Shown: positions 4,355-20,065 of the stretch, piece after piece
Numbering within the stretch: position 1 is the first letter of the stretch
Layout: each line of letters begins with the position of its first letter
Assembly: GCA_012797845.1 (NCBI GenBank)
Contig: JAAZOH010000002.1
Span: forward strand, 1 to 60,216
Reading direction: 5' to 3'
DNA from: Candidatus Beckwithbacteria bacterium
Lineage (GTDB): Bacteria; Patescibacteriota; Microgenomatia; UBA1400; UBA1449
Length of the DNA: 60,216 nt
Notes under the pieces: model-generated
Database searches by the model: none
Told to the model about the DNA's origin: nothing
Seen by the model: the letters and a program-made list of their open reading frames with translations, nothing else
Position numbers and translations under genes: made by a program

Positions 4355-4412
4355 GTTACACTAACTATAATATATTCAAACTCCTTTTACACTCCCCTAT
4401 ATAATTTTTTCT

Positions 4413-4441
4413 GTGTGACACAATGAAAAAGCAGTGAGCTA
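4413..4441 (+). repeat. 29-bp direct repeat, copy 1 (copy 2 at 6631-6659)
   Basis: GTGTGACACAATGAAAAAGCAGTGAGCTA vs GTGTGACACAATAGAAAAGCAGTGAGCTA, 27/29 identical. Confidence 0.9.
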
Positions 4442-4512
4442 GAAAAAGTTAATGTATTTTTGAAGAAATGATATAGTGTTTATATATTTAAATACTAAAA
4501 ATATTTATTGTT

Positions 4513-4665
4513 ATGAGAAAAATATCAACTGATCGGATTTTTGAATTTGAATTAGCTGCACTTAAATTACTTCAAGAGAATAATAATAGGCTACCATCTA
4601 GAGAAATCGTTAGAATTTTAGAAAATACACTTGAGTTGAACCAATATGAACCCTCCACGGACTAA
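4513..4665 (+). pseudogene. N-terminal remnant of an Mrr-type restriction protein (winged-helix Mrr_N), truncated by IS200
   Basis: MRKISTDRIFEFELAALKLLQENNNRLPSREIVRILENTLELNQYE resembles the first helices of Mrr_N. The frame runs into the IS end and stops at 4665. Not in the ORF track (too short). Confidence 0.55.
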
Positions 4666-5175
4666 AGTCCGTGGTTTCCTAAACATGTTATTGATCTTGT
4701 ACATACTTAATCACAGAACTCAGATTCCTATGGCCAACAGTACCAACAAAGTACCCTTCAGACCAAAAGCTATTTGCCCAGACAGCTTCTTCCAAGCTTG
4801 GAAACAGTTCTCGCAGCTTTTTACTGGTACCACCTTTGATCAGCTGCATAATCCTACTCGGACTGTATGTGGGTTTGGCTCCAAGCAGCAGGTGTATATG
4901 GTCAGGTTGGATGTTAAGCTCCACAATCTCAAAGTTGTTAATCTGCGCACAAAAACGAATCATGCCATCCAAACGTTTTTTAATGTTTCCTACCAGTTTT
5001 CGCTTACGATACTTGGGTATAAAAGTAAAGTGATACGTAATATCATAGGCAGTGTGAGTAATATGTTTAATTTCCATATTCTCAAGTTTATCAAATTGCC
5101 AAAACATTCGTTTTTGTGCTTACAAGGATTGCATTCCTCCCACGCCCTTACAGGGCGGGGTTTCTTGCAATGTTT
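4646..5175 (-). mobile_element. complete IS200-type element (tnpA only, no tnpB), 530 bp
   Basis: LE hairpin CCC-A-CGCCCT-tac-AGGGCG-GGG (~5139-5160), RE hairpin CCACGGACT-aa-AGTCCGTGG (4655-4674). On the minus strand both hairpins are preceded by GAAA and both cleavage sites read TCAT. Confidence 0.92.
4688..5077 (-). CDS. tnpA: IS200/IS605 family transposase TnpA (Y1, HUH)
   Basis: YHFTFIPKYRK, DHIHLL (HUH), KGGTSK, FWSEGYFVGTVG, IKYVQDQ catalytic Tyr. Start set at ATG 5077. Confidence 0.95.
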   Translation of the reverse strand: MEIKHITHTAYDITYHFTFIPKYRKRKLVGNIKKRLDGMIRFCAQINNFEIVELNIQPDHIHLLLGAKPTYSPSRIMQLIKGGTSKKLRELFPSLEEAVWANSFWSEGYFVGTVGHRNLSSVIKYVQDQ

Positions 5176-5634
5176 ATGAACTCTGTTACCCAAGAAGATA
5201 GTCTCGGTTGTAGTCTTGCTTGTATTGCCCAGCTAACCCACAAATCCTATCAAGCAATTTTAAAATTAGTCGATCATCAAAAAGCTCAAACTCAGGGATT
5301 TTATTGTAAAGAATTAGTATCTATTCTATCTTACTTAGGCTATAACTATAACTATAAATACTTAAAACCAAGACTTAAAAAACTAATTTATACAAATGGG
5401 GTCATTGTCTTTATAAAACGTTCAAAAAAATATCCTAACGGACATTATTTAATTCGTGTTAATAAAACATGGATGGATCCCTGGATAAATTTTTCTGCTA
5501 CCGCAAGGATTATCGATGCAACGGCAGGTTTTAGAAAACGGCTACCTGGAACTCCAATTTATGCTTTGTTCCCAAGGCAAATATTAGTTAGTGAACAAAA
5601 AAATACCTGCTGCTACAAAAGTAACAACAGGTAA
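5176..5634 (+). CDS. peptidase C39-like (papain-fold) protein
   Basis: QEDSLGCSLAC (Gln/Cys), GHY (His), MDP (Asp). The true start ATG 5176 coincides with the IS target site. Confidence 0.6.
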   Translation: MNSVTQEDSLGCSLACIAQLTHKSYQAILKLVDHQKAQTQGFYCKELVSILSYLGYNYNYKYLKPRLKKLIYTNGVIVFIKRSKKYPNGHYLIRVNKTWMDPWINFSATARIIDATAGFRKRLPGTPIYALFPRQILVSEQKNTCCYKSNNR

Positions 5635-5682
5635 ATTTTATTTAATTTTTGATAATAAAATATAAATCTCTTTCTATATCAA

Positions 5683-6480
5683 CTACATATGTATGCTAGA
5701 CATATTGGATATGTCATGCATGCTGTAGATATATTCCAAAACTTGTTCAACTGTAGCTAAAGCCTTAGTAATAGCTAGCAGTGGGTCTTTGGCATAAAGG
5801 CTAATGTATTTCCAACTACTGCCTGAATGGTCTTCATATCCATAAAGATTAGTTAAGACTGCAGCTGTAAATTCAGCTACCACTTCCTGATCAACATTTT
5901 GCCCAGCTGTCAATTTGCCTTTTATCCGGGCATGGATAGCATGAGCTAGTTCGTGGAAAAAGACTGAGGGGTCAAAACTAGCTAAACGGATCCTTGTCCC
6001 ATCAGTAGTACAATCTCCATACCTATCTTCTATGGTAGGGGTATAACTAACGTTAATCTTTAGTTTTTCAGCCAGATCCATAAGCGGGGGTAATTTGGCA
6101 GGAGTGTATAGAGAAATAGGAGTTTCCCCTTTGGTAGCAGAGGCTGGAAAAACCGGTACTGGATAAAAACCTATACAAGTATATTCTTCCCGATCAGCTT
6201 CTCCATCAATATCTTTGACCATATGTGGTCTGATGATATATACAGCCTTACTACCTTTCTGGACAAATCTACCTGCCTTTTGCCATTGTCTAAAACCTCT
6301 GCAATCTAATTCTTCAGCCTGGATATAGGCTAGAACCCGGTTACTTAAGCTCCAGTTTCGAGCTGGAGCTTGGGGATCTAACCGAATCCTGACGGTATTA
6401 GTAATGGGAGATAAATCTCCATTCTTAAACTTCTCGACCACCTGATCGAGACTTTGTTTAACCTTAGGAGAGAATTTCAT
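5683..6480 (-). CDS. ardC: ArdC-like ssDNA-binding antirestriction protein with zincin (HExxH) domain
   Basis: WSLSN..L, GFRQWQKAGRFVQKGSKA (ArdC N-terminal domain), HELAHAIH, EVVAE. Strong AAGGAGG SD upstream. Confidence 0.8.
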   Translation of the reverse strand: MKFSPKVKQSLDQVVEKFKNGDLSPITNTVRIRLDPQAPARNWSLSNRVLAYIQAEELDCRGFRQWQKAGRFVQKGSKAVYIIRPHMVKDIDGEADREEYTCIGFYPVPVFPASATKGETPISLYTPAKLPPLMDLAEKLKINVSYTPTIEDRYGDCTTDGTRIRLASFDPSVFFHELAHAIHARIKGKLTAGQNVDQEVVAEFTAAVLTNLYGYEDHSGSSWKYISLYAKDPLLAITKALATVEQVLEYIYSMHDISNMSSIHM

Positions 6481-6536
6481 AAACCCTATCCTCCTTCTCT
6501 ACTGCAGGAATAGTAATTAAGCACCAAGCTTGCAGC

Positions 6537-6659
6537 TAGCTCACTGCTCAACCATTCCTACTACACACGAAGTCAAGGTGCGGCATTTGTGTCCTGATTT
6601 TTTGAAGGATGCAGATGCTGTGCCTTGACCGTGTGACACAATAGAAAAGCAGTGAGCTA
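6537..6659 (+). other. ~123-nt imperfect hairpin (ssDNA or RNA structure) between ardC and the R-M operon
   Basis: Outer stem 6537-6548/6648-6659 (12 bp perfect), middle stem 6564-6569/6630-6635, inner stem 6572-6595/6606-6629 (24 contiguous pairs, 6 of them G-T/U wobble on the + strand). Confidence 0.85.
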
Positions 6660-6721
6660 AGAGACTATATTTTTATTATTAGTTGAGGAAATATAACTTT
6701 GGATATAGAATTATAGGGATT

Positions 6722-7645
6722 ATGCCAATCTTTAAAGTCAACAAACAAAAGCTGGAATCAATTAAGGAAGTTAAAATTGATTTGGAAAAAGACATACAAA
6801 CTCTTACGGAAAATAATCTGACTACTATTTTTAATCTTCAATTTGTTTGTTCTGAATTTACTCATAATAACTTACGTATTGATACTTTGGCTTACGATCA
6901 AGAAACTCAATCCTTTGTGATTATTGAATATAAAAAAGATCGAAGTTTTTCTGTTATTGATCAAGGCTATGCTTATTTAGCTTTAATGCTAAATAATAAA
7001 GCTGACTTTATTTTGGAATACAATGAAAAGACTAATCAAAATCTTAAGCGAGAGAATATAGATTGGTCACAATCACGGGTTATCTTTATCGCTAATTCTT
7101 TTACCAAATATCAACAGCAGGCTATTAACTTTCAAGATTTACCAATTGAACTTTGGGAAGTTAAAAAATACAGCAATAACACTTTTTTATATAACCAACT
7201 TCAATCACCCCAAGCTTCAGAATCGATTAAGACAATTAGTAAAAATAAAACCATAAGCAAAGTTTCACAAGAGGTTAAAAAGTATACAATTAGCGATCTT
7301 TTTAAAGTAGATTGGAGAAACTCAAGAGATTTATTTGAATCTTTAAGACCTAGAATTCTAGAAATAGATGAAAGAATTGAAGAAAAATTTAATAAATTTT
7401 ATGTAGGATACAAAATTGGGTCATATAATCTTTGTACGTTAAATGTTTATAAATCTAAACTGGAGTTAGACTTGGTAAGAGTTGATAAAAAAGATCTAAA
7501 TGATCCAGAGAATAAAATAAAACTACGACCATGGAAAGAAAATAATTGGGGTAAGTTATGTAGATATACTATCCTATCTAAAAATGACTTCGATTATGCT
7601 ATGTTTTTAATTAAACAAGTATATGAAAAGTTTTATAAGGAGTAG
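6722..7645 (+). CDS. PD-(D/E)xK (NucS/EndoMS-like) nuclease fused to DUF5655-like domain
   Basis: RIDTLAYD..FVIIEYKK nuclease motif, DQG..Y, C-terminal H/NWG-type domain. ATG start 6722 preferred over TTG 6683. Confidence 0.7.
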   Translation: MPIFKVNKQKLESIKEVKIDLEKDIQTLTENNLTTIFNLQFVCSEFTHNNLRIDTLAYDQETQSFVIIEYKKDRSFSVIDQGYAYLALMLNNKADFILEYNEKTNQNLKRENIDWSQSRVIFIANSFTKYQQQAINFQDLPIELWEVKKYSNNTFLYNQLQSPQASESIKTISKNKTISKVSQEVKKYTISDLFKVDWRNSRDLFESLRPRILEIDERIEEKFNKFYVGYKIGSYNLCTLNVYKSKLELDLVRVDKKDLNDPENKIKLRPWKENNWGKLCRYTILSKNDFDYAMFLIKQVYEKFYKE

Positions 7646-7647
7646 CC

Positions 7648-9102
7648 ATGTTCGAACAAGCCTTCAAAAATATTGATGATGTTTTATGGAAAGATGCAGG
7701 AGTGAGTAACGAGCTTGATTATATCGAGCAAACCTCCTGGATTTTGTTTTTAAAATATTTGGATGATTATGAAAAAGATAAAAAAACTGAAGCTGCCTTG
7801 GCTGGGAAGCAATATCGATTTTTAATTGATGAAGCATTTCGTTGGGAATCTTGGGCTTGTCCAAAAACTCAAGATGGTAAACTGGATCACAATCAGGCTT
7901 TATCTGGTGATGACCTTAGAGACTTTGTTGACCGTCAACTGTTCCCCTATCTCAAAAAATTTAGAGAAAAAGCTGAAAGCCCAGATACAATCGAATATAA
8001 AATCGGAGAAATATTTTCCCAGCTGCGAAACAAAATTCAAAGTGGCTATACCCTAAGAAATGTCTTAGACATTATCGACCAGATGAAATTCCGCTCCCAG
8101 CAGGAAAAATATGAACTGTCGCATCTTTATGAAGCCAAAATCCAAAATATGGGTAATGCCGGCCGTAATGGTGGCGAGTACTACACACCAAGACCACTGA
8201 TTAAAACTATTGTCAAAGTAGTTGATCCGCAGATTGGAGATCAAGTTTATGACGGGGCGGTTGGTTCGGCCGGATTTTTGATCGAGGCGTTTGAGTATAT
8301 GCGCAACTTGCGGCCACTGTCGACCAATGACGTCACAACTTTGCAAAAGCAAACCTTTTTTGGTAAAGAGAAAAAATCGCTGGCGTATATCATCGGGATT
8401 ATGAATATGATCCTGCATGGCATTGATGCCCCCAATATTTTGCATACCAACACCCTTTCTGAAAATATTTTGGATATCCAGGAAAAAGACCGCTTTGATG
8501 TGGTGCTGACCAATCCCCCATTTGGCGGCAAAGAACGCAAAGAAGTCCAGCAGAATTTCCCGATCAAAACCAGTGAAACCGCCTTTTTATTTCTGCAACA
8601 TTTTATAAAATCTCTAAAAGCAGGAGGTAAAGCCGGGATTGTAATTAAAAATACTTTTCTGTCCAATACCGACAATGCTTCCATTTCCCTGCGCAAACTG
8701 CTTTTAGAAAACTGCAACCTGCATACGATTTTGGATTTGCCAGGCGGCGTTTTTACCGGAGCTGGAGTCAAAACCGTAGTCTTATTTTTCCAAAAAGGTT
8801 CAGCAACCCAGAAGGTTTGGTTTTACCAGCTTAACCTTGACCGCAACTTAGGCAAAACCAATCCGATCAATGAAAATGATTTGGCAGAATTTTTGACTTT
8901 GCAAAAAGACAAAGCTGATAGCCGAAATTCCTGGACAGTAGATATTAAAGACGTAGACGAAAAAACCTATGATCTGTCAGTCAAAAATCCAAATAAAAAT
9001 GATGAGGTGGTGTTGCGCGAGCCGAATGAGATTTTGGAAGAGATGGAAAAGTTAGACTTAGAAAATAAAAATATAATGTTGGAAATTAAAAACTTACTAT
9101 AG
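7648..9102 (+). CDS. hsdM: type I restriction-modification methyltransferase subunit M (N6-adenine)
   Basis: GEYYTPRPLI, YDGAVGSAGFL (motif I), NPPFGG (motif IV), TSETAFLFLQH. Confidence 0.95.
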   Translation: MFEQAFKNIDDVLWKDAGVSNELDYIEQTSWILFLKYLDDYEKDKKTEAALAGKQYRFLIDEAFRWESWACPKTQDGKLDHNQALSGDDLRDFVDRQLFPYLKKFREKAESPDTIEYKIGEIFSQLRNKIQSGYTLRNVLDIIDQMKFRSQQEKYELSHLYEAKIQNMGNAGRNGGEYYTPRPLIKTIVKVVDPQIGDQVYDGAVGSAGFLIEAFEYMRNLRPLSTNDVTTLQKQTFFGKEKKSLAYIIGIMNMILHGIDAPNILHTNTLSENILDIQEKDRFDVVLTNPPFGGKERKEVQQNFPIKTSETAFLFLQHFIKSLKAGGKAGIVIKNTFLSNTDNASISLRKLLLENCNLHTILDLPGGVFTGAGVKTVVLFFQKGSATQKVWFYQLNLDRNLGKTNPINENDLAEFLTLQKDKADSRNSWTVDIKDVDEKTYDLSVKNPNKNDEVVLREPNEILEEMEKLDLENKNIMLEIKNLL

Positions 9103-9106
9103 TTCT

Positions 9107-10921
9107 ATGAGAATACAAACGATAAGTATTGCAAATTATCCTCCAATTAAAAATTTAAAAATAGAGAACTTAAGTAATGTTGTAATTATTGCTGGAGCGA
9201 ATGGTTCAGGTAAAACAAGACTGAAAGAGGCTATTATTCAAACTTTTCAAGGTAGTCCTCAAATGTCGCTAGAGATTCGAGCCACTAAAGATGAAGAAAA
9301 ACAGAGATTTAATGATGATTCAATTAATGTGATTCAGGGACAGTCAAATCAAATATTAAATCAATACATGCAAAGTCGTAGTTTTGGTCGGGGTAAATAT
9401 GTTGGATCATTAGTTCAGATTGATTCTGATAGAAATATTACAACTACAAAATATAACAAAATAAATTATCAAACCTCTGATCCAGATGACCAAGATTCAC
9501 CAAGCACGTTTTATTGTCAAAATTTTGCAAATAGATGGCAAGATTTTATGAATTATATTCATCAAAAAGTGGCTGCATATAATACAAAATTAGCTGAGGA
9601 AGTAAAAAACAACCAAGAAAAAAAGGGACGCGAAATATTACTAAAATTGCCACATCCACTAGATAAATACAAAGCTATATTCAAGAAACTACTACAAGAT
9701 AAAGAATTACAAGACATAGACCCAGCTAATCCAGGCGAATTTAAATACAAAACTGATGAGGGAATAATACTGCCTTTCAAGGCATTAAGTTCTGGTGAAC
9801 AGGAAATTATCAAAATAATATTTGATATTGAAAGGAAAGATATTAAACATTCAGTTATTCTTGTTGATGAACCTGAATTACATTTACACCCTACCCTTAC
9901 TTTCAAATTAATAGAAAATTTGAAGACAATTGGCGAACAAACAAATCAGTTTATATTTCTCACTCATTCTGCAGATATTATTTCAACTTATTATTCGACC
10001 GGAGATGTATATTTTATTGATGCAGAACAAACTGGACAAAACCAGGCTCATAAATTAAGTGAGCTTGATCATAGTCATAAAACATTAGTAAAACTTATAG
10101 GCGAAAATCTAGGTTTATTTGCTGTAGGCAAAAAACTTATTTTTATTGAAGGAGATAGTTCAAGTATTGATCGAATGACTTACCATTCTATAGCCCAAAA
10201 ATATCTTCCTGATGCTAAAGTAATTCCAATAGGTTCCGTTGAGAGTATAGGAACACTAAATATCATAGAAGAACAAATAAGAAATGCAATTTTTGGTATA
10301 GACTTTTATATGATTAGGGATCGTGATGGTTTAGCAAATGATCAGATCAATGAATTAGAAAAAAGTGGGAAATTAAAATGTTTGAAACGAAGACATATAG
10401 AAAATTATTTTTTTGATGAAGGAACCTTATTTAAGGTTGCTGAAAGATTGTGTCTAACTACAATAAATCCACAAATTACCCCTACCTATATTATTTCCGA
10501 ATTAAAAAAAATTGCTTCTAAAATGTTTAATTTAAATCTTTTGCAAAGCATAAAAGATTATTTAGTACTTAATCACAACCTAGACATTCCTACTGTTCGG
10601 AACATAGATAAAAAAAGCTCTGAAGAAATAAAAATAGAAATGATAAGTGGAGTAAAACAATCTTTGTCAAAAATCAATATCGATCTTTCTGAAGTAAAAC
10701 TAGACCAATGGATTACTACAGAAAAACTCAAATTAGAACGTTCACTTCAAGCTGATGAGTGGATTATTGATTTCCGTGGCAAAGAAATATTTTCTGTATT
10801 TTGTTCCAATGTTTTTCATGATGATGTTTTGAAAATAAGACAAGCGTATGTAGATATAGCACTTCAAGAAAAACCTAATATCTTTAAAGATATTATTGAC
10901 ATATATCAAAGTTTTAATTAA
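9107..10921 (+). CDS. ABC/AAA ATPase fused to TOPRIM-like nuclease (OLD-family-like)
   Basis: GANGSGKT Walker A, LSSGEQ signature, ILVDEPELHLHP Walker B/D-loop, THS H-loop, then FIEGD...D and RDRD TOPRIM motifs and IENY. Confidence 0.85.
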   Translation: MRIQTISIANYPPIKNLKIENLSNVVIIAGANGSGKTRLKEAIIQTFQGSPQMSLEIRATKDEEKQRFNDDSINVIQGQSNQILNQYMQSRSFGRGKYVGSLVQIDSDRNITTTKYNKINYQTSDPDDQDSPSTFYCQNFANRWQDFMNYIHQKVAAYNTKLAEEVKNNQEKKGREILLKLPHPLDKYKAIFKKLLQDKELQDIDPANPGEFKYKTDEGIILPFKALSSGEQEIIKIIFDIERKDIKHSVILVDEPELHLHPTLTFKLIENLKTIGEQTNQFIFLTHSADIISTYYSTGDVYFIDAEQTGQNQAHKLSELDHSHKTLVKLIGENLGLFAVGKKLIFIEGDSSSIDRMTYHSIAQKYLPDAKVIPIGSVESIGTLNIIEEQIRNAIFGIDFYMIRDRDGLANDQINELEKSGKLKCLKRRHIENYFFDEGTLFKVAERLCLTTINPQITPTYIISELKKIASKMFNLNLLQSIKDYLVLNHNLDIPTVRNIDKKSSEEIKIEMISGVKQSLSKINIDLSEVKLDQWITTEKLKLERSLQADEWIIDFRGKEIFSVFCSNVFHDDVLKIRQAYVDIALQEKPNIFKDIIDIYQSFN

Positions 10922-10995
10922 TTTTTATAAAAAATTTTAATAACTAAAGAATTAATTAAGATATACGTTTTTACGCTAAATAAAAAAGAATATGT

Positions 10996-11409
10996 ATGAG
11001 CATTAATCATCAAGAAATAATAACCGAGATTAATAAAAATATTACTACAATAATAACTGTAATTTTGATAATTTTTACTTTCTTTTTTTATTATTCCAGT
11101 GCTTATTTTTTTGCATTTCTAACCTTAGTTTTACTTTTGATTAGTCCCAGAGTTAATGACATTAAAAAGATCAAGGTAAGTTTTAAAAATGTTGATATTG
11201 AATTTAGAGAACTTAATAAAGAATTAAAAGAAGTTATACAATCCAAAAATACATTAGAAAATAAACTTAAAGGAGCTAAAAAAATACTTAGCAATATGTT
11301 TAAACTTGGTTGTCGTATTGGAGAGGGAAAGGCTTTAGGTACAATTTCAGATGTAAAAATGATTGAAGACGAGGAAGGAAATATAACAGTTCAATATGAT
11401 GAATCCTAA
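10996..11409 (+). CDS. hypothetical membrane protein (two TM helices plus coiled region)
   Basis: Hydrophobic N-terminal pair of segments; overlaps the hsdS start. Confidence 0.6.
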   Translation: MSINHQEIITEINKNITTIITVILIIFTFFFYYSSAYFFAFLTLVLLLISPRVNDIKKIKVSFKNVDIEFRELNKELKEVIQSKNTLENKLKGAKKILSNMFKLGCRIGEGKALGTISDVKMIEDEEGNITVQYDES

Positions 11410-12490
11410 CTGGCAAACAAAAAAACTAGGCGAAGTAATAAAACTTGAATATGGAAAACCATTACCTAAATCTGATAGAAAAACTGATGGTAGATATCCG
11501 ATTTATGGCGCCAATGGAATTAAAAGCTGGAGTAATAAATTTTATTATGATAAGCCCACTATTATTGTTGGCAGGAAAGGTTCTGCTGGTGAAATTAATC
11601 TAGTGGAAGAAAAATTTTGGCCATTAGATGTTACTTATTTTACAACTTTTGATGCTAAAAAATATGATTTAAAATTTTTATATAACCTTTTAAAAAATCT
11701 TGAACTCCCAAAATTAGCAAAAGGTGTGAAGCCTGGGATTAATAGGAATGATATTTATAAAATAAAAGTTCCCCTTCCTCCCCTTTCCGAACAACGTCGC
11801 ATAGTCAAAATTCTGGATGAGGTTTTTGGACAGATTGAGAAAGTCAAAGCAAATACTCAAAAAAATCTGGAAAATAGCAAAGAGTTGTTTGAATCGTATT
11901 TGAAATACTCCTATGAAGGAAACAATGAATGGTTAACTAAAAACTTATTTGAGGTTGCAGAAATAAATAAAGATAAAAATGGTAGAAAAGACCTTCCATA
12001 TATTGGGATGGAGGATATTGAATCTAATTCTGGGAAGTTTATCGGATCATTTGAACCAAAAAGTGTAAAGAGTTCATCTTTTTATTTTAATGATAAACAT
12101 ATTTTATATGGTAGATTAAGACCTTATTTAAATAAGGTACTGATACCAGATTTTGAAGGACATTGTTCGACGGAAATATTTCCGATTAGAGTAAATAATA
12201 GTTTGGATAAAAAGTTTTTATTTTACTGGCTTATAAAAAGATCAACTACAGAAAGAATTAATTCTACATGTACAGGAGCCAGAATGCCGAGAGCAAATAT
12301 GAATAAAGTTTTTAAAGACTTTAAAGTTGTATTTCCAAAATCTCTTACTGAGCAAAAGCAAATAGTCGCTAAGCTGGATGATTTATCAGAGAAAACTAAA
12401 AAATTAGAACAAAATTATCGGCAGAAATTGGCGGATTTGGAGGAGCTTAAGAAATCAGTTCTCAATAAAGCGTTTAGTGGTGAGTTGTAA
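11396..12490 (+). CDS. hsdS: type I restriction-modification specificity subunit S
   Basis: Two TRDs separated by PLPPLSEQRRIV..LD and closed by EQKQIVAKLD...KAFSGEL conserved helices. Confidence 0.95.
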   Translation: MMNPNWQTKKLGEVIKLEYGKPLPKSDRKTDGRYPIYGANGIKSWSNKFYYDKPTIIVGRKGSAGEINLVEEKFWPLDVTYFTTFDAKKYDLKFLYNLLKNLELPKLAKGVKPGINRNDIYKIKVPLPPLSEQRRIVKILDEVFGQIEKVKANTQKNLENSKELFESYLKYSYEGNNEWLTKNLFEVAEINKDKNGRKDLPYIGMEDIESNSGKFIGSFEPKSVKSSSFYFNDKHILYGRLRPYLNKVLIPDFEGHCSTEIFPIRVNNSLDKKFLFYWLIKRSTTERINSTCTGARMPRANMNKVFKDFKVVFPKSLTEQKQIVAKLDDLSEKTKKLEQNYRQKLADLEELKKSVLNKAFSGEL

Positions 12491-12500
12491 AAATAAAGAT

Positions 12501-12538
12501 AGATTCCGGATCAGGCTTTCAATCTGTCCGGAATGACA
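12501..12538. repeat. REP-like palindrome
   Basis: AGATTCCGGATC...TCCGGAATGAC, with stem ATTCCGGA/TCCGGAAT. Confidence 0.65.
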
Positions 12539-12543
12539 TGGGT

Positions 12544-12608
12544 TAGTTTACAATTATTTACCAACTAGTTGACATAAGAGAAGCCATAGTTTACAATTAG
12601 TTGACATA
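12544..12608 (+). promoter_or_regulatory. four TAGTT(T/G)ACA boxes, candidate operator of the downstream wHTH protein
   Basis: TAGTTTACAATTA at 12544 and 12587; TAGTTGACATA at 12566 and 12598, ending at the ATG. Confidence 0.6.
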
Positions 12609-13666
12609 TGATAAACAAAGAAGAAATACTTAAAACCATAAAAGATAAAGGCATTGTCAAAAGCTCTGATTTGGTGGCTAGTTTTGGTGTGTCAAGACAA
12701 TATATTGCCAGACTTTTAGCCCAGCTGGTTTCTGAAAATGAAATTGTCAAAGTTGGCTCAACCAGAGGTGCTTTGTATGCTACTGAAAGTTATTTAGCTA
12801 AAAATCCTCAATCTGCTGCTGCTGTTTACACTAAAACTTTTAAAAATACTAATCTGGAAGAGCATAAGATTGTTGATGAGATAAAAACCAGCTTTTCCTT
12901 GTTTGATCAATTGCCGGAAAATATCAAAAGTATTTTTGAATACGCTTTTTCAGAAATGCTCAATAACGCTATTGAGCATTCGCACTCTAAAACTATTAAA
13001 GTAAAAGTCAGTTTAAATCAGAAAGAGCTTTCCTTTGTGATTGATGATTTTGGTATAGGAGTATTTAGAAGCATCATGAATAAAAGAGGCCTCAAATCTG
13101 AGCTGGAAGCGATTCAAGATTTGCTCAAGGGCAAAACTACAACAGCGCCCAAGCTCCACTCTGGAGAGGGAATCTTCTTTACTTCTAAAGTTGGAGATCA
13201 ATTTGCTTTGGATAGTTTTGGTTACCAACTTATGACAGATAATACCATTGATGATCTGTTTGTCGGCAAAACCAAGGGACAAAAACAAGGAACAAGAGTT
13301 ACTTTTAAAATCGGTATTGATAACAAACATCATCTCAATGATGTTTTTAAAGAGTATACCAATGTGAGTAATGATGGAGACTATGGTTTTGACAAAACGG
13401 AAATAAAAGTGAGGCTCTACACCATGGGTGGGGTGTATATTTCCCGCTCTCAAGCACGCAGAGTTTTGGCAGGACTGGAAAAATTTAAAGTCATCGTGAT
13501 GGACTTTGATAAAGTGCCGACAGTAGGTCAGGCATTTACCGATGAAATTTATCGGGTCTTTAAAAATAAATATCCGGAAATAAAAATTGAGAATATAAAT
13601 ACGAATGAAGCTGTCAATTTTATGGTGGAGCGGGCCAAGAAAGAAGCAGAAGTAGGAAGAACATAG
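12608..13666 (+). CDS. wHTH - HATPase_c - STAS-like (DUF4325) protein
   Basis: N-terminal HTH (SRQYIARLL), EMLNNAIEHS N-box, DDFGIG G1, HSGEGIF G2, GTRV; C-terminal SRSQARR..DF..V..VGQAF.DE. Confidence 0.85.
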   Translation: MINKEEILKTIKDKGIVKSSDLVASFGVSRQYIARLLAQLVSENEIVKVGSTRGALYATESYLAKNPQSAAAVYTKTFKNTNLEEHKIVDEIKTSFSLFDQLPENIKSIFEYAFSEMLNNAIEHSHSKTIKVKVSLNQKELSFVIDDFGIGVFRSIMNKRGLKSELEAIQDLLKGKTTTAPKLHSGEGIFFTSKVGDQFALDSFGYQLMTDNTIDDLFVGKTKGQKQGTRVTFKIGIDNKHHLNDVFKEYTNVSNDGDYGFDKTEIKVRLYTMGGVYISRSQARRVLAGLEKFKVIVMDFDKVPTVGQAFTDEIYRVFKNKYPEIKIENINTNEAVNFMVERAKKEAEVGRT

Positions 13667-13692
13667 TGTGAAAGTTTGTAACCATCTTTTAT

Positions 13693-16053
13693 ATGAACGA
13701 AGCCGAAACTCGAGCTGAATATATTGATCCAAAGTTAAAATCATCTGGATGGGGAGAAGTTGAAGGGTCAAAAGTTTTACGGGAATATCGGATAAGTGAA
13801 GGAAGAATACTGGGGAATTTAATAGATAGAAAGCCGGAAATTGCCGATTACATCTTGGTATATAAAAACCGCAAACTTGCAGTTATAGAAGCCAAAGCTG
13901 ATGAGCTGCCGGTATCAGAAGGCGTTAATCAAGCCAAAAATTACGCCAGAAAACTAAAGCTTGATTTTACCTATTCCAGCAATGGCAGAGAAATTTACGA
14001 AGTGAATATGAAGACCGGTAAGGAATGGACTTTGGAGCGCTTCCCTACCCCGGATGAACTTTGGCAAGCTAGTTTTTCGGATCAGAATGAATGGAAAATC
14101 AAATTTTCCAATATTCCCAATGAAGGTAGTTTTGGAAGTCGTTATTATCAAGAAATTGCAATCAACAATATTTTGGATGCTATAGCTGAGGAGAAAACCA
14201 GAATTTTGCTGACCATGGCTACCGGTACTGGCAAAACTGCCGTGGCTTTTCAAGTAGCTTGGAAACTGTTTCAAACCCGCTGGAATTTAAACCGTGATGG
14301 CGGTCGCAGGCCCAGAATTTTATTTTTAGCCGACCGCAATATTTTAGCTGACCAAGCTTTCAATGCCTTTTCTGCTTTCCCGGAAGATGCGCTGGTGAGG
14401 ATTAATCCTTTGGATATCCGTAAAAAAGGCTGCGTACCGACTAATGGCAGTATCTTTTTTACTATTTTTCAAACATTCATGAGTGGAGCAAATAACACTC
14501 CTTATTTTGGGGAGTATCCGGCAGATTTTTTTGACTTCATTATTATTGATGAATGTCATCGAGGTGGGGCCAATGATGAGAGTAATTGGCGCGGTATTTT
14601 GGACTACTTCAAACCCGCGGTACAACTGGGCATGACGGCTACTCCCAAGCGAAAAGATAATATTGACACGTATAAATATTTTGGCGAACCGGTTTATATT
14701 TACTCACTTAAAGAAGGTATTAACGACGGCTTTCTAACTCCATTTAAAGTTAAGCGGATTAAAACCACGCTTGATGATTATGTGTATGTTTCTGATGATC
14801 AGATAATTGAAGGCGAAGTTGAAGAAGGCAAAGTTTATGAAGAACCGGATTTTAACCGCATTATTGAAATAAAAGAACGAGAGGCTGAAAGAGTCAGGAT
14901 AGTTTTGAATGAAATAAACCAAAATGAAAAGACACTTATTTTTTGTGCTACCCAACTTCACGCTTTAGCGGTGAGAGATTTAGTTAATCAAATGAAAAAG
15001 AGTCATGATCCCCTTTATTGTGTCAGAGTAACTGCCGACGATGGGTCCAGAGGTGAACAATATTTACGCGAATTTCAAGATAATGAAAAAACTATTCCCA
15101 CTATTTTAACTACTTCCCAAAAATTATCTACCGGAGTTGATGCCAGAAATATTCGCAATATTGTTTTGATGCGGCCGATTAATTCTATGATTGAATTTAA
15201 ACAAATTATTGGTCGAGGCACTAGACTATTTGATAATAAATATTATTTTACTATTTATGATTTTGTTGATGCCTACAAACATTTTTCTGATCCAGAATGG
15301 GATGGTGAACCGATCCCAGAAATTTGTAAAAAATGTGGTCAAGATCCTTGTGTTTGTGAACCAAAATCACCCCAAGTTTGTCCCGTTTGTGGTCAATCGC
15401 CATGTATTTGCGAAAAACCACCTAGAATTTGTCCCGTTTGTGGTCAGTCACCTTGTATTTGTAAACCCAAGAAAATGTTAAAGATAAAATTACGTGACGG
15501 TAAAGAACGAGATATTCAACATATGCTTTCCACCTCATTTTGGGGGGCAGATGGCAAACCGTTGTCTTCTGAAGAATTTATCAAAAAGATTTATGGAGCT
15601 TTACCAGATTTATTTAAAAATGAAGCTGAACTACGAAAGATTTGGTCCAATCCCACAACCCGAAAAAAGTTTTTGAGTCGGTTATTTGAGTTAGGCATAG
15701 ACTTAGAACAATTAGAAAATATTCAAAAAGTAGTCAACGCTCAAAATTGCGATCTTTTTGATGTTTTAATTTATTTATCATTTAGCAAACCCTTAATTAC
15801 TAGACAAGAAAGAATTGATAAAAACAGAAAAAATATTTTTGAAGGACTTGATGATAAGCAAATAGAATTTTTAAACTTTGTTTTATCAAAGTATGAAGAA
15901 AAAGGTGTAGAAGAATTAGATGAAGAAAAACTACCAATTCTTTTAAATCTTAAATATCAAGCTATAGCTAATGCCGAACAATCTTTGGGTGATGTTAATA
16001 CAATCCGCGATATGTATTTTGACTTTCAAAAAAGACTTTATGCTGAAGTTTAA
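13693..16053 (+). CDS. hsdR: type I restriction endonuclease subunit R (EcoEI/EcoAI-like)
   Basis: ADYIL..AVIEAK nuclease motif, MATGTGKT, IIDECHRG, LSTGVDA, QIIGRGTR, and an EcoEI-type C-terminal domain. Confidence 0.95.
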   Translation: MNEAETRAEYIDPKLKSSGWGEVEGSKVLREYRISEGRILGNLIDRKPEIADYILVYKNRKLAVIEAKADELPVSEGVNQAKNYARKLKLDFTYSSNGREIYEVNMKTGKEWTLERFPTPDELWQASFSDQNEWKIKFSNIPNEGSFGSRYYQEIAINNILDAIAEEKTRILLTMATGTGKTAVAFQVAWKLFQTRWNLNRDGGRRPRILFLADRNILADQAFNAFSAFPEDALVRINPLDIRKKGCVPTNGSIFFTIFQTFMSGANNTPYFGEYPADFFDFIIIDECHRGGANDESNWRGILDYFKPAVQLGMTATPKRKDNIDTYKYFGEPVYIYSLKEGINDGFLTPFKVKRIKTTLDDYVYVSDDQIIEGEVEEGKVYEEPDFNRIIEIKEREAERVRIVLNEINQNEKTLIFCATQLHALAVRDLVNQMKKSHDPLYCVRVTADDGSRGEQYLREFQDNEKTIPTILTTSQKLSTGVDARNIRNIVLMRPINSMIEFKQIIGRGTRLFDNKYYFTIYDFVDAYKHFSDPEWDGEPIPEICKKCGQDPCVCEPKSPQVCPVCGQSPCICEKPPRICPVCGQSPCICKPKKMLKIKLRDGKERDIQHMLSTSFWGADGKPLSSEEFIKKIYGALPDLFKNEAELRKIWSNPTTRKKFLSRLFELGIDLEQLENIQKVVNAQNCDLFDVLIYLSFSKPLITRQERIDKNRKNIFEGLDDKQIEFLNFVLSKYEEKGVEELDEEKLPILLNLKYQAIANAEQSLGDVNTIRDMYFDFQKRLYAEV
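15325..15462 (+). repeat. three tandem CxxCGQxPCxC repeats inside hsdR
   Basis: CKKCGQDPCVC / CPVCGQSPCIC / CPVCGQSPCIC; units start at 15325, 15379 and 15430. Confidence 0.9.
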
Positions 16054-16139
16054 ACAAATTAATTAAGTTTCCAGATTGATAAAATAATTAGGTTTACAAC
16101 TATTTTAAAATGATATAAAACTCAGGTTTTATATAAACT

Positions 16140-16886
16140 ATGGAAAAAATAATCAAATCCGAATTAGAACCTCATATACAGAAACTTATTGATGATTTGG
16201 TAATAAAATATGGTCCAATCGCTATCGTATTAATAGGACTATTTTTAATAATAGTAATAATAACATGGGATATTCTAAAAAATAAAATAAGAGGTGAAGT
16301 AAAAAAGGGAGTCGATAAACATAAAGCAGAGATTGATAATACCTACACTAAACAAATTGAACATTATCGTCTTTATGTTGCTAAACAACACAAAGCCTAT
16401 GCCAAATTAAATAAATATTTATTAAAAACAGAAGGTTTGGCAGTATTTCAAGCTTTAAAGACATATCCAGATTTTACAGAATATACAGAAACAGAAATTT
16501 CGAAATATCTTAAAGAAAGGAACGCATCAGAAAATGAATTGAAACAATTCATTAGTTTAATGGGTGATTCTAAAGCTTTACAAAAAGAAATGCAAAACTA
16601 TACAGAATTATTTAATGTAAGAAAAGCTCGTGTTTTTTTTCATAAAACTAAAAATCATTATTGGATTAACGCATTATATTTTTCCAATAAAATTGAAGAG
16701 CAATTTAAAGATATTACTAAAATATTGAATGAAATGATTATTATTAGAGAAATACCGTCAAATGATAATAAACTTACGAAAGAAGATATGCAGACATTGA
16801 GAAGTTTACAAAAAAACTTGCAATCAAGTATTGATAAAATAGTCAAACAAATGAAGGAAGAGTTATCTGCAGGCTTAGCTAAGTAA
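16140..16886 (+). CDS. hypothetical protein with single N-terminal TM helix and helical body
   Basis: Clean 248-aa ORF co-oriented after hsdR; no recognisable motif. Confidence 0.7.
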   Translation: MEKIIKSELEPHIQKLIDDLVIKYGPIAIVLIGLFLIIVIITWDILKNKIRGEVKKGVDKHKAEIDNTYTKQIEHYRLYVAKQHKAYAKLNKYLLKTEGLAVFQALKTYPDFTEYTETEISKYLKERNASENELKQFISLMGDSKALQKEMQNYTELFNVRKARVFFHKTKNHYWINALYFSNKIEEQFKDITKILNEMIIIREIPSNDNKLTKEDMQTLRSLQKNLQSSIDKIVKQMKEELSAGLAK

Positions 16887-17015
16887 GTTAGTTTATTAAG
16901 TCCTATAATCTATACTTTACCACCTTCTTCTGATATAATTTGGTTCTAATTTAAGTCTATTTTTAGGTTTAGCTTTTTATAATCAATACTATAAGTATGC
17001 TAATTTTTATTTACC

Positions 17016-17576
17016 ATGAAAGATAGTGAGCAATCAATCGGACTATATGACTATGCCGAGCTACAATCATTTTTAGCTGCTCCATTTAGACAGTTAGAAA
17101 CTAGGCAAATACCACAAGCTCCTAGTAAAGAATTTTTGATGTGGATACCAACACAGAGACATATTGAAGTAGGTTTTGTATACAAGTCTAGTATCTGGTA
17201 CCTTGTAAAAGCTAGTGATTGGGGAATCCCGATTTGGTTAATACCTCCAGATGCTGATGTCTTACTTCATTCTCATTACGAAATTCCCGGACAAGATCCA
17301 ATAAAAGCAACCATACCTAGCGCTGAAGACTTTTTAAATGCTTCACCAACTGCCCATAATTTAATTACTTCAACTATTGGTTTAACTCAATTCCATACAG
17401 TTGATTCCTTACATCATCTGGAATTAAGAGCCATCGCAGAATCAGAAAGATATAGAACCGATATTGATGGCTACTTAAGCTTTCTTGAAAGTCTTGATGC
17501 TAGGTATGAAGTGTATCTATGGGAAGAAATGTCGGATAACCAATTAGCTTGTCTTTTGAAAAGCAGTTACAAATGA
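17016..17576 (+). CDS. hypothetical protein, possible JAB/MPN-like metallo-motif
   Basis: IEVG ... LLHSH ... PSAED resembles the JAMM E..HxH..SxxD motif with an elongated spacer. Confidence 0.45.
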   Translation: MKDSEQSIGLYDYAELQSFLAAPFRQLETRQIPQAPSKEFLMWIPTQRHIEVGFVYKSSIWYLVKASDWGIPIWLIPPDADVLLHSHYEIPGQDPIKATIPSAEDFLNASPTAHNLITSTIGLTQFHTVDSLHHLELRAIAESERYRTDIDGYLSFLESLDARYEVYLWEEMSDNQLACLLKSSYK

Positions 17577-17605
17577 AAATTATCCATATATAATTAAAAC
17601 TATAT

Positions 17606-17818
17606 ATGACTACAGCTACTCTAATTCAAGTCGGCAAAAAACTAAAAAAGGCAAGACAAAAAAGAAGTTTAACGCAGCAGCAAGTTGCCGATAAAGTGGG
17701 TATTCACGTCAGTTATTACTACCGCATTGAGCGGGGCGTTGTTAATCCTTCTATAGAAATATTAGAACAAGTTTGTAAGGTATTAAAAATTAAAGGAAGT
17801 GAGATCTTACCTTTTTAG
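17606..17818 (+). CDS. XRE-family helix-turn-helix transcriptional regulator
   Basis: LKKARQKRSLTQQQVADKVGIHVSYYYRIERG..NPS. Confidence 0.92.
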   Translation: MTTATLIQVGKKLKKARQKRSLTQQQVADKVGIHVSYYYRIERGVVNPSIEILEQVCKVLKIKGSEILPF

Positions 17819-18096
17819 TGTTTCGTGATTTTCTTCTGGCTGCTTTTTCCCTCCCGCTTTTTTAAGATAATTCTGGCTACTGATTCTAAAATATCAGCCA
17901 CTTTTTCAATATTATCTGGCGTAAGATTTTCTGGGTCTTTTTCCTCTAAGCCTATTTTGGCATATTTTAAAGCTACTACTCTACTTTCCAGTATTTTCTT
18001 AAATGTTTGCGAATGAATACACGAGAACTTTTTGAGGAAAACTTCTTCTTGACTTAAACTCAAAGCCTTATTTTTTACTGACTTATTATTTTTCAT
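17815..18096 (-). CDS. small hypothetical protein divergent from the recombinase
   Basis: ATG 18096 (MKNNKSVK...), 93 aa. The longer ORF-track call would overlap the recombinase start. Confidence 0.55.
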   Translation of the reverse strand: MKNNKSVKNKALSLSQEEVFLKKFSCIHSQTFKKILESRVVALKYAKIGLEEKDPENLTPDNIEKVADILESVARIILKKREGKSSQKKITKH

Positions 18097-18192
18097 TGCT
18101 ATATTATAACTTATTTGACCTCCAGTAATCTTTCTCTCTATCCCTATATGGATAGTTAAGCCTGACATATCAATAATTATATAATAATACGT

Positions 18193-19839
18193 ATGGAAAA
18201 TGCTGTGGCTGTCATTAGGGTATCCACTGTAACCCAAAGTATGCGGGGAGATTCACCTGAGGATCAAAAGCAACAGATCGAACGTTATGCTCAGGCAAGA
18301 AGTATCAGGATTAAGAAATATTTTGTCTTCATGGACTCAGCTTCTAAAGAGCAACAGCCTGTCCAGGAAGCTATTAACTACTGCATAAAAGCTCAGAATC
18401 ATATCCAGCTCCTTATCATCAAATCAATTGACCGATTTACCAGAGGTGGTTCATCACTGTATGACTTGATGAAAACTCGCCTTACAAAACACGGGGTTAA
18501 GTTAATCGATTTATATGGTGTCATCAGCAACCAAAGTGTTAACACCTTGGAACATTTAAGTGTAGCTTATTCCTGGAGTGTGTACAATCCTACGAAAAAA
18601 ACCGAGCTTTTAGAAGCCGAACGGGGAAAAGATGAAATGAGGGATATTATGACCCGGATGATAGGGGCTGAAATCAGGTATGTCAGACTGGGTTACTATG
18701 TCAGGGCTGCCCCGCTTGGGTACCAAAACCAAAAAATTGAGACAGTGCATGGCAGGCGGAATATTTTAGTCCCCCACCCGGTTGAATCAAAATGGATTAT
18801 TGCTATGTTCCGGCTAAAAGCTGAAGGTTTTTTATCTGATCATGAAATTGTCCAACACGTTAACTTATCCGGTTTTAAGACACGAAGATACTATGTTCGG
18901 GATACGCAAGATAAGCGCAAAGTAATTGGGTATCAGGGCGGCAAAGCCTTAACTATAAAAAATTTTGACAGGTTACTTAAAAAACCAATCTATGCTGGTA
19001 TCAACTGCGAAAAATGGACGGCTAATAAGCCAGTAAAATGCGTGTTCCCTGGTCTTGTATCAATTGACCTTTTCAATAAGGCTAATAAAGACAAGATGCT
19101 AATCTGTGAGCAAAATGGTGAGGTGCAACTTATCAAAGGTAAAGCCATGCTTAAGCGCTTTGTCAAAAGTTCCAAAACCTATTTGTATCCATATAAAAGA
19201 CTGGTGCTATGCCCTATTTGCAGACAGCCGTTCTTTGCCAGTGCTTCTAGAGGCAGATTGGGCATATACTATCCTGCCTACCATTGCAACAAACGTGGCC
19301 ATTACTACCGTGTACCTCTGAAAAAATTCAACCAAACAGTAATCAATTTTTTAAGCAGAATCAGGATTAAAAAAAAGTATAATTCTTACTACCAAAAACT
19401 GTTTAAGCGCGAATGGAAGCAAAAGCAACAATTACGAAACAAGCATCGGCTGCTAATTGACACCAGGTTACAGGAAATTGATACAGAAATTAAGCTTAAC
19501 CTTGAAAAGGTTAACATGCTCTATTCAAAAACTGCCTTAAGTGCAATTGAGGTAACAATAGGACAGCTAGAAAGGGAAAAGAAAAAGTTACAAGCCAAGA
19601 GAAGCATAACTCTAAAGAATGCCAGGAATGATAAAAACAAACATCCTCAAATTAGTCAGCCAAGTAATCAGATTCCTACACATATTATTAATGACCATAA
19701 TACAGTTAGTAGAGAAAGGCTATTTAACTACCTTTTCCAAACCTTACCCACGTATGAGGAGCTAGAAAAATTTAGTGCCAAATTAAACAGAGAATTTACC
19801 ATTCATCTGGGCCAGGAGAAGGTGATGCAAACGGCATAG
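18193..19839 (+). CDS. large serine recombinase (resolvase + recombinase + Zn-ribbon + coiled coil)
   Basis: IRVST catalytic Ser, SIDRFTRG, APLGY, CPIC...YHC zinc ribbon, C-terminal coiled coil. Confidence 0.92.
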   Translation: MENAVAVIRVSTVTQSMRGDSPEDQKQQIERYAQARSIRIKKYFVFMDSASKEQQPVQEAINYCIKAQNHIQLLIIKSIDRFTRGGSSLYDLMKTRLTKHGVKLIDLYGVISNQSVNTLEHLSVAYSWSVYNPTKKTELLEAERGKDEMRDIMTRMIGAEIRYVRLGYYVRAAPLGYQNQKIETVHGRRNILVPHPVESKWIIAMFRLKAEGFLSDHEIVQHVNLSGFKTRRYYVRDTQDKRKVIGYQGGKALTIKNFDRLLKKPIYAGINCEKWTANKPVKCVFPGLVSIDLFNKANKDKMLICEQNGEVQLIKGKAMLKRFVKSSKTYLYPYKRLVLCPICRQPFFASASRGRLGIYYPAYHCNKRGHYYRVPLKKFNQTVINFLSRIRIKKKYNSYYQKLFKREWKQKQQLRNKHRLLIDTRLQEIDTEIKLNLEKVNMLYSKTALSAIEVTIGQLEREKKKLQAKRSITLKNARNDKNKHPQISQPSNQIPTHIINDHNTVSRERLFNYLFQTLPTYEELEKFSAKLNREFTIHLGQEKVMQTA

Positions 19840-20065
19840 TTGTGGTTGTGGTAGCTCCAGAAGCAGTAACTGAGCTAGAGGTAATTGAAAGCACTCTCTC
19901 AGATTCTGGTCTTTTCAAAAAATCATCAGGTAGTTCGCAATAAAAAGGTTTGGGATCTTGATCATCACAGAGCTCTAAATAGCCAACAAACTTATTTTTT
20001 TGAGCATCATCTTCCTTTTTAACTTCTCGAATTTCTGCTGGTGGCAAATCAGTAATAATGGTCAT
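19796..20065 (-). CDS. small hypothetical protein
   Basis: 89-aa ORF directly downstream of and co-oriented with the PLD gene. Confidence 0.5.
   Translation of the reverse strand: MTIITDLPPAEIREVKKEDDAQKNKFVGYLELCDDQDPKPFYCELPDDFLKRPESERVLSITSSSVTASGATTTTTMPFASPSPGPDEW

Follow-up and report, generated by a model that had tools for sequence, protein, structure and literature searches.

Among described mobile islands, the staphylococcal cassette chromosome (SCC) islands, in which SCCmec can occur together with pseudo-SCC, consist of tandem modules with direct repeats at their borders and junctions and with imperfect inverted ends. One module encodes a Ccr serine recombinase, the pseudo-elements depend on this enzyme in trans, and the accessory cargo is variable. 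SCC composite islands moved by Ccr recombinases provide the closest known analogy for a defense island of ∼15.5 kb (about 4413 to 19880) in contig JAAZOH010000002.1 of a Candidatus Beckwithbacteria bacterium. The window, meaning the whole stretch of 60,216 nucleotides that was analyzed, was assembled from a metagenome (ENA ERZ928041, run ERR1876141), belongs to a Patescibacteria-like organism and represents a single contig from a single sample. The subject of this report is a 29-bp sequence (29-mer) that is present twice in the island, once at its left border and once as one arm of a large hairpin. We tentatively propose, while granting the proposal somewhat less than an even chance, that two tandem modules, a decayed one and one that encodes a large serine recombinase (LSR), share the 29-mer as their conserved terminal site of recombination and together would make up a composite island of the SCC type.

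The two 29-mers, GTGTGACACAATGAAAAAGCAGTGAGCTA (4413–4441) and GTGTGACACAATAGAAAAGCAGTGAGCTA (6631–6659), are direct repeats located 2218 bp apart that are identical at 27 of 29 positions, and both mismatches fall in the central region. When up to three mismatches are allowed, exactly these two matches are found in the window (0.00 expected from 100 shuffles), and the third-best match has 10 mismatches. The 60 nucleotides 5′ of each copy resemble each other only at the level of shuffled sequences (p 0.98), and the same holds for the spacers between each copy and the next start codon (p 0.47), which is an ATG at 4513 lying 71 nucleotides past copy 1 and an ATG at 6722 lying 62 nucleotides past copy 2. 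Because its edges are sharp and its flanks are unrelated, the repeat fits a functional site and does not fit a segmental duplication.

A preliminary description of this DNA, made from the sequence alone, had reported the duplicated right arm of the hairpin and a first copy lacking a left arm; the coordinates, the 27/29 identity and the missing arm are all borne out. Its distances to the downstream genes are also correct, as is the type I restriction-modification (R-M) operon that it placed behind copy 2. However, the “Mrr-like remnant” that it named behind copy 1 is a plausible label with no family match, and the NucS identity that it gave to the first gene of the operon, here called PDC-S18, is at best putative. 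The sites and the recombinase gene on which the argument depends are as follows.

4413–4441, plus strand: copy 1 of the 29-mer (site A), at the left island border, 58 bp past the stop codon of an APH-type kinase gene and without an inverted partner.
6537–6569, plus strand: 5′ arm of the hairpin, the inverted partner of the 29-mer, in which TAGCTCACTGCT exactly complements the last 12 bases of the 29-mer and CACACG complements its first bases.
6570–6629, plus strand: inner hairpin with a 24-bp stem that includes six G·T pairs, a 10-nucleotide loop (GATTTTTTGA) and an AA bulge before it.
6631–6659, plus strand: copy 2 of the 29-mer, which forms the 3′ arm, 62 nucleotides 5′ of the PDC-S18 gene.
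18193–19839, plus strand: LSR gene, encoding 548 amino acids with a Resolvase catalytic domain.
19852–19879, plus strand: site C (TAGCTCcagaAGCAGTaactGAGCTAga), beginning 13 bp past the recombinase stop codon, in which a split 12-mer follows the inverted outer half TAGCTC.

The hairpin formed with copy 2 spans 123 nucleotides (6537–6659). Its perfect 12-bp basal stem (TAGCTCACTGCT paired with AGCAGTGAGCTA) is surmounted by an internal loop of 15 and 12 nucleotides, a 30-bp upper stem with the AA bulge, and a 10-nucleotide apical loop, and the structure starts with TAGCTC and finishes with GAGCTA. The 5′ arm is an imperfect inverted copy of the entire 29-mer that retains its 12-bp block as well as the block CACACG/CGTGTG. 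The middles of the two arms, which measure 15 nucleotides in the 5′ arm and 12 in the 29-mer, are unrelated. Two kept blocks around an unrelated middle read as the pattern of recombinase half-sites or of terminal inverted repeats. At this internal junction the inverted arms are separated by the 60-nucleotide palindrome at 6570–6629. No inverted partner exists for copy 1, the sole inverted 12-mer in the window being that at 6537–6548.

The last 12 bases of the 29-mer (AGCAGTGAGCTA) return at 19862–19877 with a 4-bp insertion (AGCAGTaactGAGCTA), and we regard site C, of which they are part, as a candidate right-hand attachment site. The exact 12-mer is present three times in the window (4430–4441, 6648–6659 and, inverted, 6537–6548) and the gapped form once. 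Of these four occurrences, one marks the left border of the island, two form the inverted pair at its internal junction and one, the gapped form, marks its right border. The sequences at 4413–4441 and 6631–6659 and the degenerate one at 19862–19877 are direct repeats, and only that at 6537–6569 is inverted. By chance, 0.06 gapped matches are expected per window, and other Patescibacteria loci contain a single one in about 1.4 Mb; for site C taken alone, p is about 0.04–0.06 per window.

Several other features of these sites were noted. Site C has some likeness to a tRNA D-arm (TAGCTCAGTT), but was rejected as a tRNA remnant because neither ARAGORN nor a tRNA model detected anything there. The right edge of site A (4436–4454) matches a stretch of the recombinase coding sequence (19758–19776) at 17 of 19 nucleotides, a borderline similarity in low-complexity sequence that was set aside. 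AT-rich inverted flanks around copy 1 (4396–4412, TAATTTTTTCT, and 4441–4454, AGAAAAAGTTA) could form a 13-bp stem (−13.3 kcal/mol), which may be a chance product of low-complexity sequence.

The relatives of the LSR provide a second line of evidence. Proteins with about 50% identity to it are widespread in Patescibacteria, and our set of such relatives comprises 160 loci (L090–L169 and L173–L252; 1.45 Mb). A convergent tRNA gene abuts the LSR stop codon in 43 of 60 genome loci and in 41 of 42 metagenome loci, with tRNA types that include Glu, Gln, Lys, Arg, Ser, Asn, Asp, Val and Ile. Site C occupies the position of this tRNA junction. Many of the loci with 10-kb flanks also carry, directly upstream, a pair of minus-strand open reading frames (ORFs) of about 880 and 255 amino acids, which in the loci sampled with Pfam have TrwB/TraG coupling-protein domains and a Replic_Relax domain, respectively. 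These arrangements suggest that the LSR family represents integrative, probably mobilizable elements whose junction would be at the end of the recombinase gene. As is typical for attachment sites of LSRs, the recombinase gene in the island is inside the element and next to one candidate site, namely site C.

Tandem accretion appears to have occurred in this family. In locus L189, a 38-bp direct repeat (92% identical; 1934–1971 and 11623–11660, 9.7 kb apart) with one sharp (right) edge spans the last codons of the recombinase gene and 13 nucleotides of the 3′ end of a tRNA-Gln gene, and to the left of the repeat a weaker homology runs into a decayed recombinase 3′ end. This arrangement appears to be what is left of an older element in tandem, as if older elements had been pushed aside in tandem. 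In two further loci (L149:4703–4820 and L150:4692–4820), tandem repeats of the tRNA 5′ end and its upstream flank are located just outside the recombinase-tRNA junction, with a period of 52 nucleotides in L149.

With their convergent tRNA genes, coupling-protein-like ATPase and Replic_Relax genes, and one case of tandem accretion, the LSR relatives resemble the integrative mobilizable or conjugative elements found at tRNA genes. Unlike the usual elements of this kind, they employ a serine recombinase, whereas tRNA genes are usually targeted by tyrosine integrases. Serine recombinases at tRNA genes, and apparent mobilizable elements in Patescibacteria, look under-described, and we found nothing specific on them in the literature.

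In the composite island proposed here, copies 1 and 2 of the 29-mer read as the left termini of modules 1 and 2. Module 1 (4413–6569, 2.2 kb) would be a decayed unit without a recombinase, bounded on the left by the 29-mer and on the right by the imperfect inverted copy at 6537–6569. Module 2 would begin at the 29-mer at 6631–6659, carry the PDC-S18 gene, the type I R-M operon and the LSR gene, and end at site C (19852–19879). Where the modules meet, module 1 would end and module 2 would begin with termini that are mutually inverted and hence able to pair, flanking the 60-nucleotide palindrome, and the outer part of the hairpin would then be largely a by-product of the layout of neighboring modules, a proposal that we make as tentatively as the reading to which it belongs. 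A site-specific recombinase is predicted to bind the 12-bp block AGCAGTGAGCTA and the GTGTG block. The likeliest enzyme would be the LSR of the island itself, which would serve its own module 2 in cis and module 1 in trans, and the modules may be integrated and excised singly or jointly, as Ccr recombinases do for SCC islands. The different first genes behind the two 29-mers would represent different cargo behind one common element end.

A rare motif positioned at border, junction and border, the sharp edges of the repeat, the partner that keeps two blocks, and the tandem accretion seen in the LSR family all fit such an island, and the cargo consists of known defense genes. Module 1, which lacks a recombinase and whose first gene is truncated by an IS200 insertion sequence, fits a pseudo-element. 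The preliminary description had proposed a fixed element end or recombination site beside which defense cargo is swapped. The sharp edges and the location at module boundaries of a defense island agree with this proposal, although no swapping was seen elsewhere. Its suggestion of a tandem stack possibly served by the recombinase at 18193 is reasonable in view of site C past the LSR stop codon, the tRNA junction in the relatives and the accretion in L189.

As in SCC islands, direct repeats are present at both borders and at the junction, and an inverted repeat is present at a module end. Among the differences, the LSR belongs to another family, whose members abut tRNA genes rather than the 3′ end of rlmH, and the island is flanked by an APH-type kinase gene and an orphan ORF of 89 amino acids, with a repeat that overlaps no conserved gene end. 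Moreover, the junction has an extra 60-nucleotide palindrome, the right repeat is degenerate, and mobility is here a prediction.

Several observations weigh against the composite island. Serine integrases normally leave few identical bases at attL and attR. A direct repeat of 29 bp is unlike the product of such an enzyme, and therefore two related tandem elements must be assumed. The junction is not a standard compact attachment site, in that the bases adjoining copy 2 on its left are no inverted copy of it and its inverted partner lies 60 nucleotides away. Standard LSR sites measure 40–50 bp and consist of two imperfectly inverted half-sites around a 2-bp crossover; the 29-mer and its partner do have a length like that of a half-site and two conserved blocks. 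Site C has only 12 (+4) bases in common with the 29-mer, and a search for the 29-mer in inverted orientation around the recombinase gene, including the surroundings of site C, found none. Unlike the elements of its relatives, the LSR locus in the window has lost, or never had, the tRNA gene and the transfer genes (coupling-protein-like and Replic_Relax), and carries defense cargo instead. Neither the motif nor the hairpin, the latter sought with a covariance model, is present in any of the 160 loci of LSR relatives, and no excision junction or inversion variant is present in the two assemblies of the only sample. Finally, all six G·T pairs among the 42 pairs of the hairpin pair on the plus strand only, an outcome with a chance of roughly 1 in 30 if transitions are unbiased. 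This one-sidedness, which the composite island leaves unexplained, hints at selection on a single strand, either RNA or single-stranded DNA (ssDNA).

Both assemblies pass through site A, copy 2 and site C unbranched, and their sole break is a single base. Of the Logan contigs from the same run, one ends at 6548 and another starts at 6550, leaving exactly one base uncovered. The uncovered base (6549) is the lowest unpaired one above the basal stem of the hairpin, and the gap suggests a single-nucleotide polymorphism or bubble. An invertible segment was considered because one Logan contig stops at the inner edge of the left 12-mer, and was rejected because the other contig runs from 6550 through 6648–6659, as expected for a polymorphism bubble.

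If the composite island is real, it would provide a worked example of how the ultra-small genomes of Patescibacteria stack defense modules behind a common end sequence, and of how one serine recombinase could serve a decayed neighboring module. It would also supply predicted attachment sites for a large, uncharacterized family of serine recombinases, which are of interest as tools for genome integration. As the finding is based on one contig from one sample, we consider it suggestive rather than important.

The 29-mer and its hairpin are an orphan element. Exact-pattern scans found no 29-mer in GTDB (one genome per species), IMG/VR or JGI metagenomes, and no basal-stem 12-mer pair in GTDB genomes or IMG/VR. 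A blastn search with the hairpin region against plasmids and phages returned only AT-rich chance matches, and the covariance model of the hairpin has no match upstream of the closest PDC-S18 homologues. The preliminary description had held that a motif absent elsewhere would be a one-off duplication, and absence is largely what we observe, in these collections as in the LSR and PDC-S18 loci. The orphan status and the p of only about 0.04–0.06 per window for site C are consistent with a functionless event in which 29 bp were copied by illegitimate recombination or repair and site C arose by chance. We nonetheless judge such an origin quite unlikely. Both edges of the repeat are sharp, with 27 of 29 positions kept amid unrelated flanks, the sites are located exactly at a border, a junction and the end of a recombinase gene, and the inverted partner keeps the same two blocks.

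Another explanation is a miniature palindromic repeat of the kind represented by miniature inverted-repeat transposable elements (MITEs) and the ERIC and Correia families. Viewed as a member of this group, the hairpin would be a 123-bp non-autonomous element with terminal inverted repeats of ∼30 bp around a 60-bp core. Copy 1 would represent a solitary fragment of its right end and site C an internally deleted copy, and the 2.2-kb spacing would be meaningless. Like Correia, ERIC and REPIN elements, the hairpin is about 120 bp in size, intergenic, bounded by terminal inverted repeats and folded into a long imperfect hairpin. Indeed, the near-perfect palindrome with conserved ends folds stably on either strand, the dinucleotide TA is present at both tips of all three sites, as in TA-duplicating families, and in both copies the repeat stops, on its right side, at the tip of the palindrome. 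However, those families have many full copies where only one is present here, and the copies here are situated at island borders. No additional copy is present in the other 45 kb of the window, in public collections or in related loci, and all three sites are found at island borders or the junction instead of being scattered between genes. Random truncation would place the left edge of copy 1 precisely at the foot of the inner hairpin, where it is found, only by coincidence, and the window encodes no matching transposase. We regard a miniature repeat as an unlikely explanation, if one that deserves to be kept in mind.

The strand asymmetry of the hairpin bears on two further explanations. As RNA, the plus strand folds with −66.8 kcal/mol (z −8.1) versus −55.7 for the minus strand, and the corresponding values for DNA are −32.2 and −26.0. 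One explanation is a folded single-stranded attachment site resembling either integron attC or the sites used by CTX phage and other integrative mobile elements exploiting Xer (IMEX). Specifically, module 1 would be a circle whose plus-strand hairpin is recombined by a tyrosine recombinase acting in trans, for example a host enzyme of the Xer type. The duplexes formed by CGTGTG and by the 12-bp stem, arranged around an unpaired center, would mimic a duplex 29-bp target, and exchange of one strand pair would yield one bare 29-mer and one 29-mer joined to its partner arm.

The observed topology, with a bare copy on one side and the full hairpin on the other, matches this prediction, but the match does not discriminate, since a 29-bp core recombined as duplex DNA would leave the copies arranged identically. 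The size and layout of the 29-mer are those of a simple core site, both differences between the copies are central, and the fold is strand-specific, with all six wobble pairs on the plus strand. As with attC, a hairpin site with an unpaired center is situated at the downstream end of a module and is followed directly by the next module. In CTX-type IMEX at dif, a bare site of ∼28 bp and a site joined to an inverted arm likewise flank an element that lacks a recombinase, and the center of the folded CTX attP is unpaired. Module 1 contains only the IS200 TnpA gene, a C39-like ORF, an ArdC-like gene and an ORF of 50 amino acids, and so is similarly without a recombinase of its own.

Other comparisons speak against a folded site. 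The only recombinases or transposases in the window are the serine recombinase and IS200 TnpA, and no tyrosine recombinase or Phage_integrase-type domain was found in sizeable ORFs of its 60 kb. Unlike an integron, the window has no IntI, attI or Pc, and unlike attC, the hairpin at 6537–6659 has no R″/L″ and L′/R′ cores and no GTTRRRY at its 3′ end; on reading, the 29-mer itself has neither RYYYAAC nor GTTRRRY. Integron cassettes also differ in that the modules here have multiple genes, are only two in number and have promoter-like sites before their first genes, while the segment shared between sites is 29 bp rather than the few bases shared in attC arrays, and sites of this type are absent from the other genomes searched. 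CTX elements are recombined by host XerCD, and the 29-mer has no likeness to known dif sites, lacking the inner dyad ATAA-N6-TTAT of the consensus, although the dif of this host may differ. The window has no Xer gene and no filamentous-phage genes, and its local GC skew and gene orientation are not like those of a replication terminus. Furthermore, the two blocks of the 29-mer are not inverted repeats of each other, and the motif recurs in none of the collections scanned.

In light of these findings we consider a folded attachment site very improbable, and its fuller form, in which the hairpin would be a folded ssDNA site for exchanging recombinase-less defense modules of Patescibacteria beside a fixed 29-bp site with an enzyme in trans, highly improbable. 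We know of no integron-like or IMEX-like cassette system in Patescibacteria, and if this explanation were true such a system would be new to the group; a hairpin acting as folded ssDNA would represent a new type of recombination site. The preliminary description had likened the locus to an attC-like, ssDNA-anchored hotspot of cassette exchange, a proposal left unsupported for want of a tyrosine recombinase in the window, of attC cores and of any recurrence in the collections searched. It had also paired this idea with the serine recombinase at 18193, and because serine recombinases act on duplex DNA, the two parts fit each other poorly.

The same asymmetry could instead reflect a structured plus-strand RNA (a small RNA or leader) or a hairpin on ssDNA undergoing transfer that serves as a promoter or priming site for early expression of the divergent ArdC-like gene, in which case the 29-mer would be a regulatory sequence common to two promoters. 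The fold is strand-specific and very stable (z −8.1), and as in the Frpo-type promoter of the F plasmid, the hairpin is on the template strand of the ArdC-like gene and an arm contains a TTGACC hexamer. However, unlike Frpo, the hexamer 17 bp downstream of TTGACC is AGCAGT, which is not −10-like, no −10 element is present 16–18 nucleotides away, and no clear promoter precedes 6537. A promoter-like TTGARG-17-TAnAnT is found 19–24 nucleotides past each 29-mer copy, but such matches are no more frequent in the region than in shuffled sequences (8 observed versus 9.8 expected). A promoter duplicated together with the 29-mer was likewise rejected, since the similarity after the copies is not significant. 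A search of the hairpin, site A and site C against Rfam 15 revealed no family at the gathering score and none that was convincing at E = 10, the permissive scan giving only chance-level miRNA and snoRNA matches at E 0.1–1. Copy 1 is unable to fold in this way, and no such hairpin accompanies the homologues of PDC-S18 and of the ArdC-like gene elsewhere. A regulatory role of this kind is, in our estimation, very unlikely.

Four other origins of the hairpin were considered and rejected. Homology between its right half and the 3′ end of the recombinase gene is not significant, no reverse transcriptase is present to indicate a retron, the IS200 element has end hairpins of its own and therefore is not a source in the manner of IS200/IS605 ends, and the sites are not spaced as in a res site of the Tn3 type.

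The island is preceded on its left by genes for a glycosyltransferase, a HAD hydrolase, a radical-SAM protein and the APH-type kinase, the last of which ends at 4354. The features of its interior are listed below.

4442–6536: interior of module 1, with no recombinase of its own.
4513–4665, plus strand: ORF of 50 amino acids, Mrr_N-like on reading and cut by the IS200 element.
4688–5107, minus strand: IS200 tnpA, with end hairpins near 4653–4675 and 5143–5157.
5176–5634: C39-like peptidase ORF.
5683–6480, minus strand: ArdC-like gene encoding an HExxH motif and starting on the side of the hairpin.
6722–7645, plus strand: PDC-S18/DUF5655 gene, a full-length defense candidate (PADLOC E 2.5e-104) at the head of the type I R-M operon.
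7648–9102, plus strand: hsdM.
9107–10921, plus strand: gene for an AriAB-like OLD-family ATPase.
Between the AriAB-like gene and hsdS, plus strand: ORF of 137 amino acids.
11396–12490, plus strand: hsdS.
12608–13666, plus strand: gene for a HATPase/DUF4325 protein.
13693–16053, plus strand: hsdR.
17606–17818, plus strand: gene for a small helix-turn-helix (HTH) regulator of the HTH_3 (Cro/C1) type, adjoining the recombinase gene.

The 50-amino-acid ORF has no match in Pfam, PADLOC, NCBIfam or the PDB. It has only weak relatives (E about 3e-4), all short proteins, and the pattern of these relatives, on reading, resembles a winged helix of the Mrr_N type, which makes the remnant label plausible. 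The C39-like ORF past the insertion sequence is in the same reading frame, yet it does not continue the Mrr_N pattern (4513–5634), and a deletion or replacement beside IS200 in this interval is likely. No other copies of the IS200 TnpA gene were found when further contigs of the same genome were sought with it.

ArdC-like homologues in other phyla are preceded by a different small hairpin. In an Archaeoglobales contig (L003:2890–2941) and a Planctomycetota contig (L004:3539–3572), the genes share the conserved hairpin TCTGATTG-N10-CAATCAGA at 15–45 nucleotides 5′ of the start codon, and this structure is unrelated to that at 6537–6659.

The N-terminus of the PDC-S18 protein is weakly HSDR_N-like. 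Its closest homologues are 67–72% identical, and a small HTH gene precedes the homologue in two of three related loci. In two Patescibacteria loci (L253 and L256), PDC-S18/DUF5655 genes follow a small HTH gene and precede type II R-M genes, the partners being either an EcoRV-like nuclease with a Dam-like methylase or an N6_N4 methylase, and the gene in L253 also adjoins a different large serine recombinase. PDC-S18/DUF5655 therefore appears to accompany R-M systems regularly.

The type I R-M operon is itself interrupted by additional genes. A gene for a 604-amino-acid AriAB-like protein (PARIS-type, OLD-family ATPase-Toprim; 9107–10921) is set between hsdM and hsdS, and the HATPase/DUF4325 gene is interposed between hsdS and hsdR. 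Within hsdR, an internal tandem duplication of 48 nucleotides (83%) is present at 15363–15461. Two unknown genes lie between hsdR and the small HTH gene. At the right flank of the island, a search with the 89-amino-acid ORF, made in order to place the right-hand junction, found no homologues.

Farther to the right, a direct repeat of ∼150 bp detected by a repeat finder (21317–21467 and 23719–23869; 89%) includes the 3′ end of a PHP-domain gene. The 2.4-kb segment inside the repeats contains genes for a 362-amino-acid membrane protein and tRNA-Asp (22703–22777), an ORF of 245 amino acids and no recombinase, and it looks like another insertion that brought a replacement gene end. Finally, a glmS ribozyme is located on the minus strand at 55030–55223 (50.7 bits), 5′ of the glmS gene (53172–54920).

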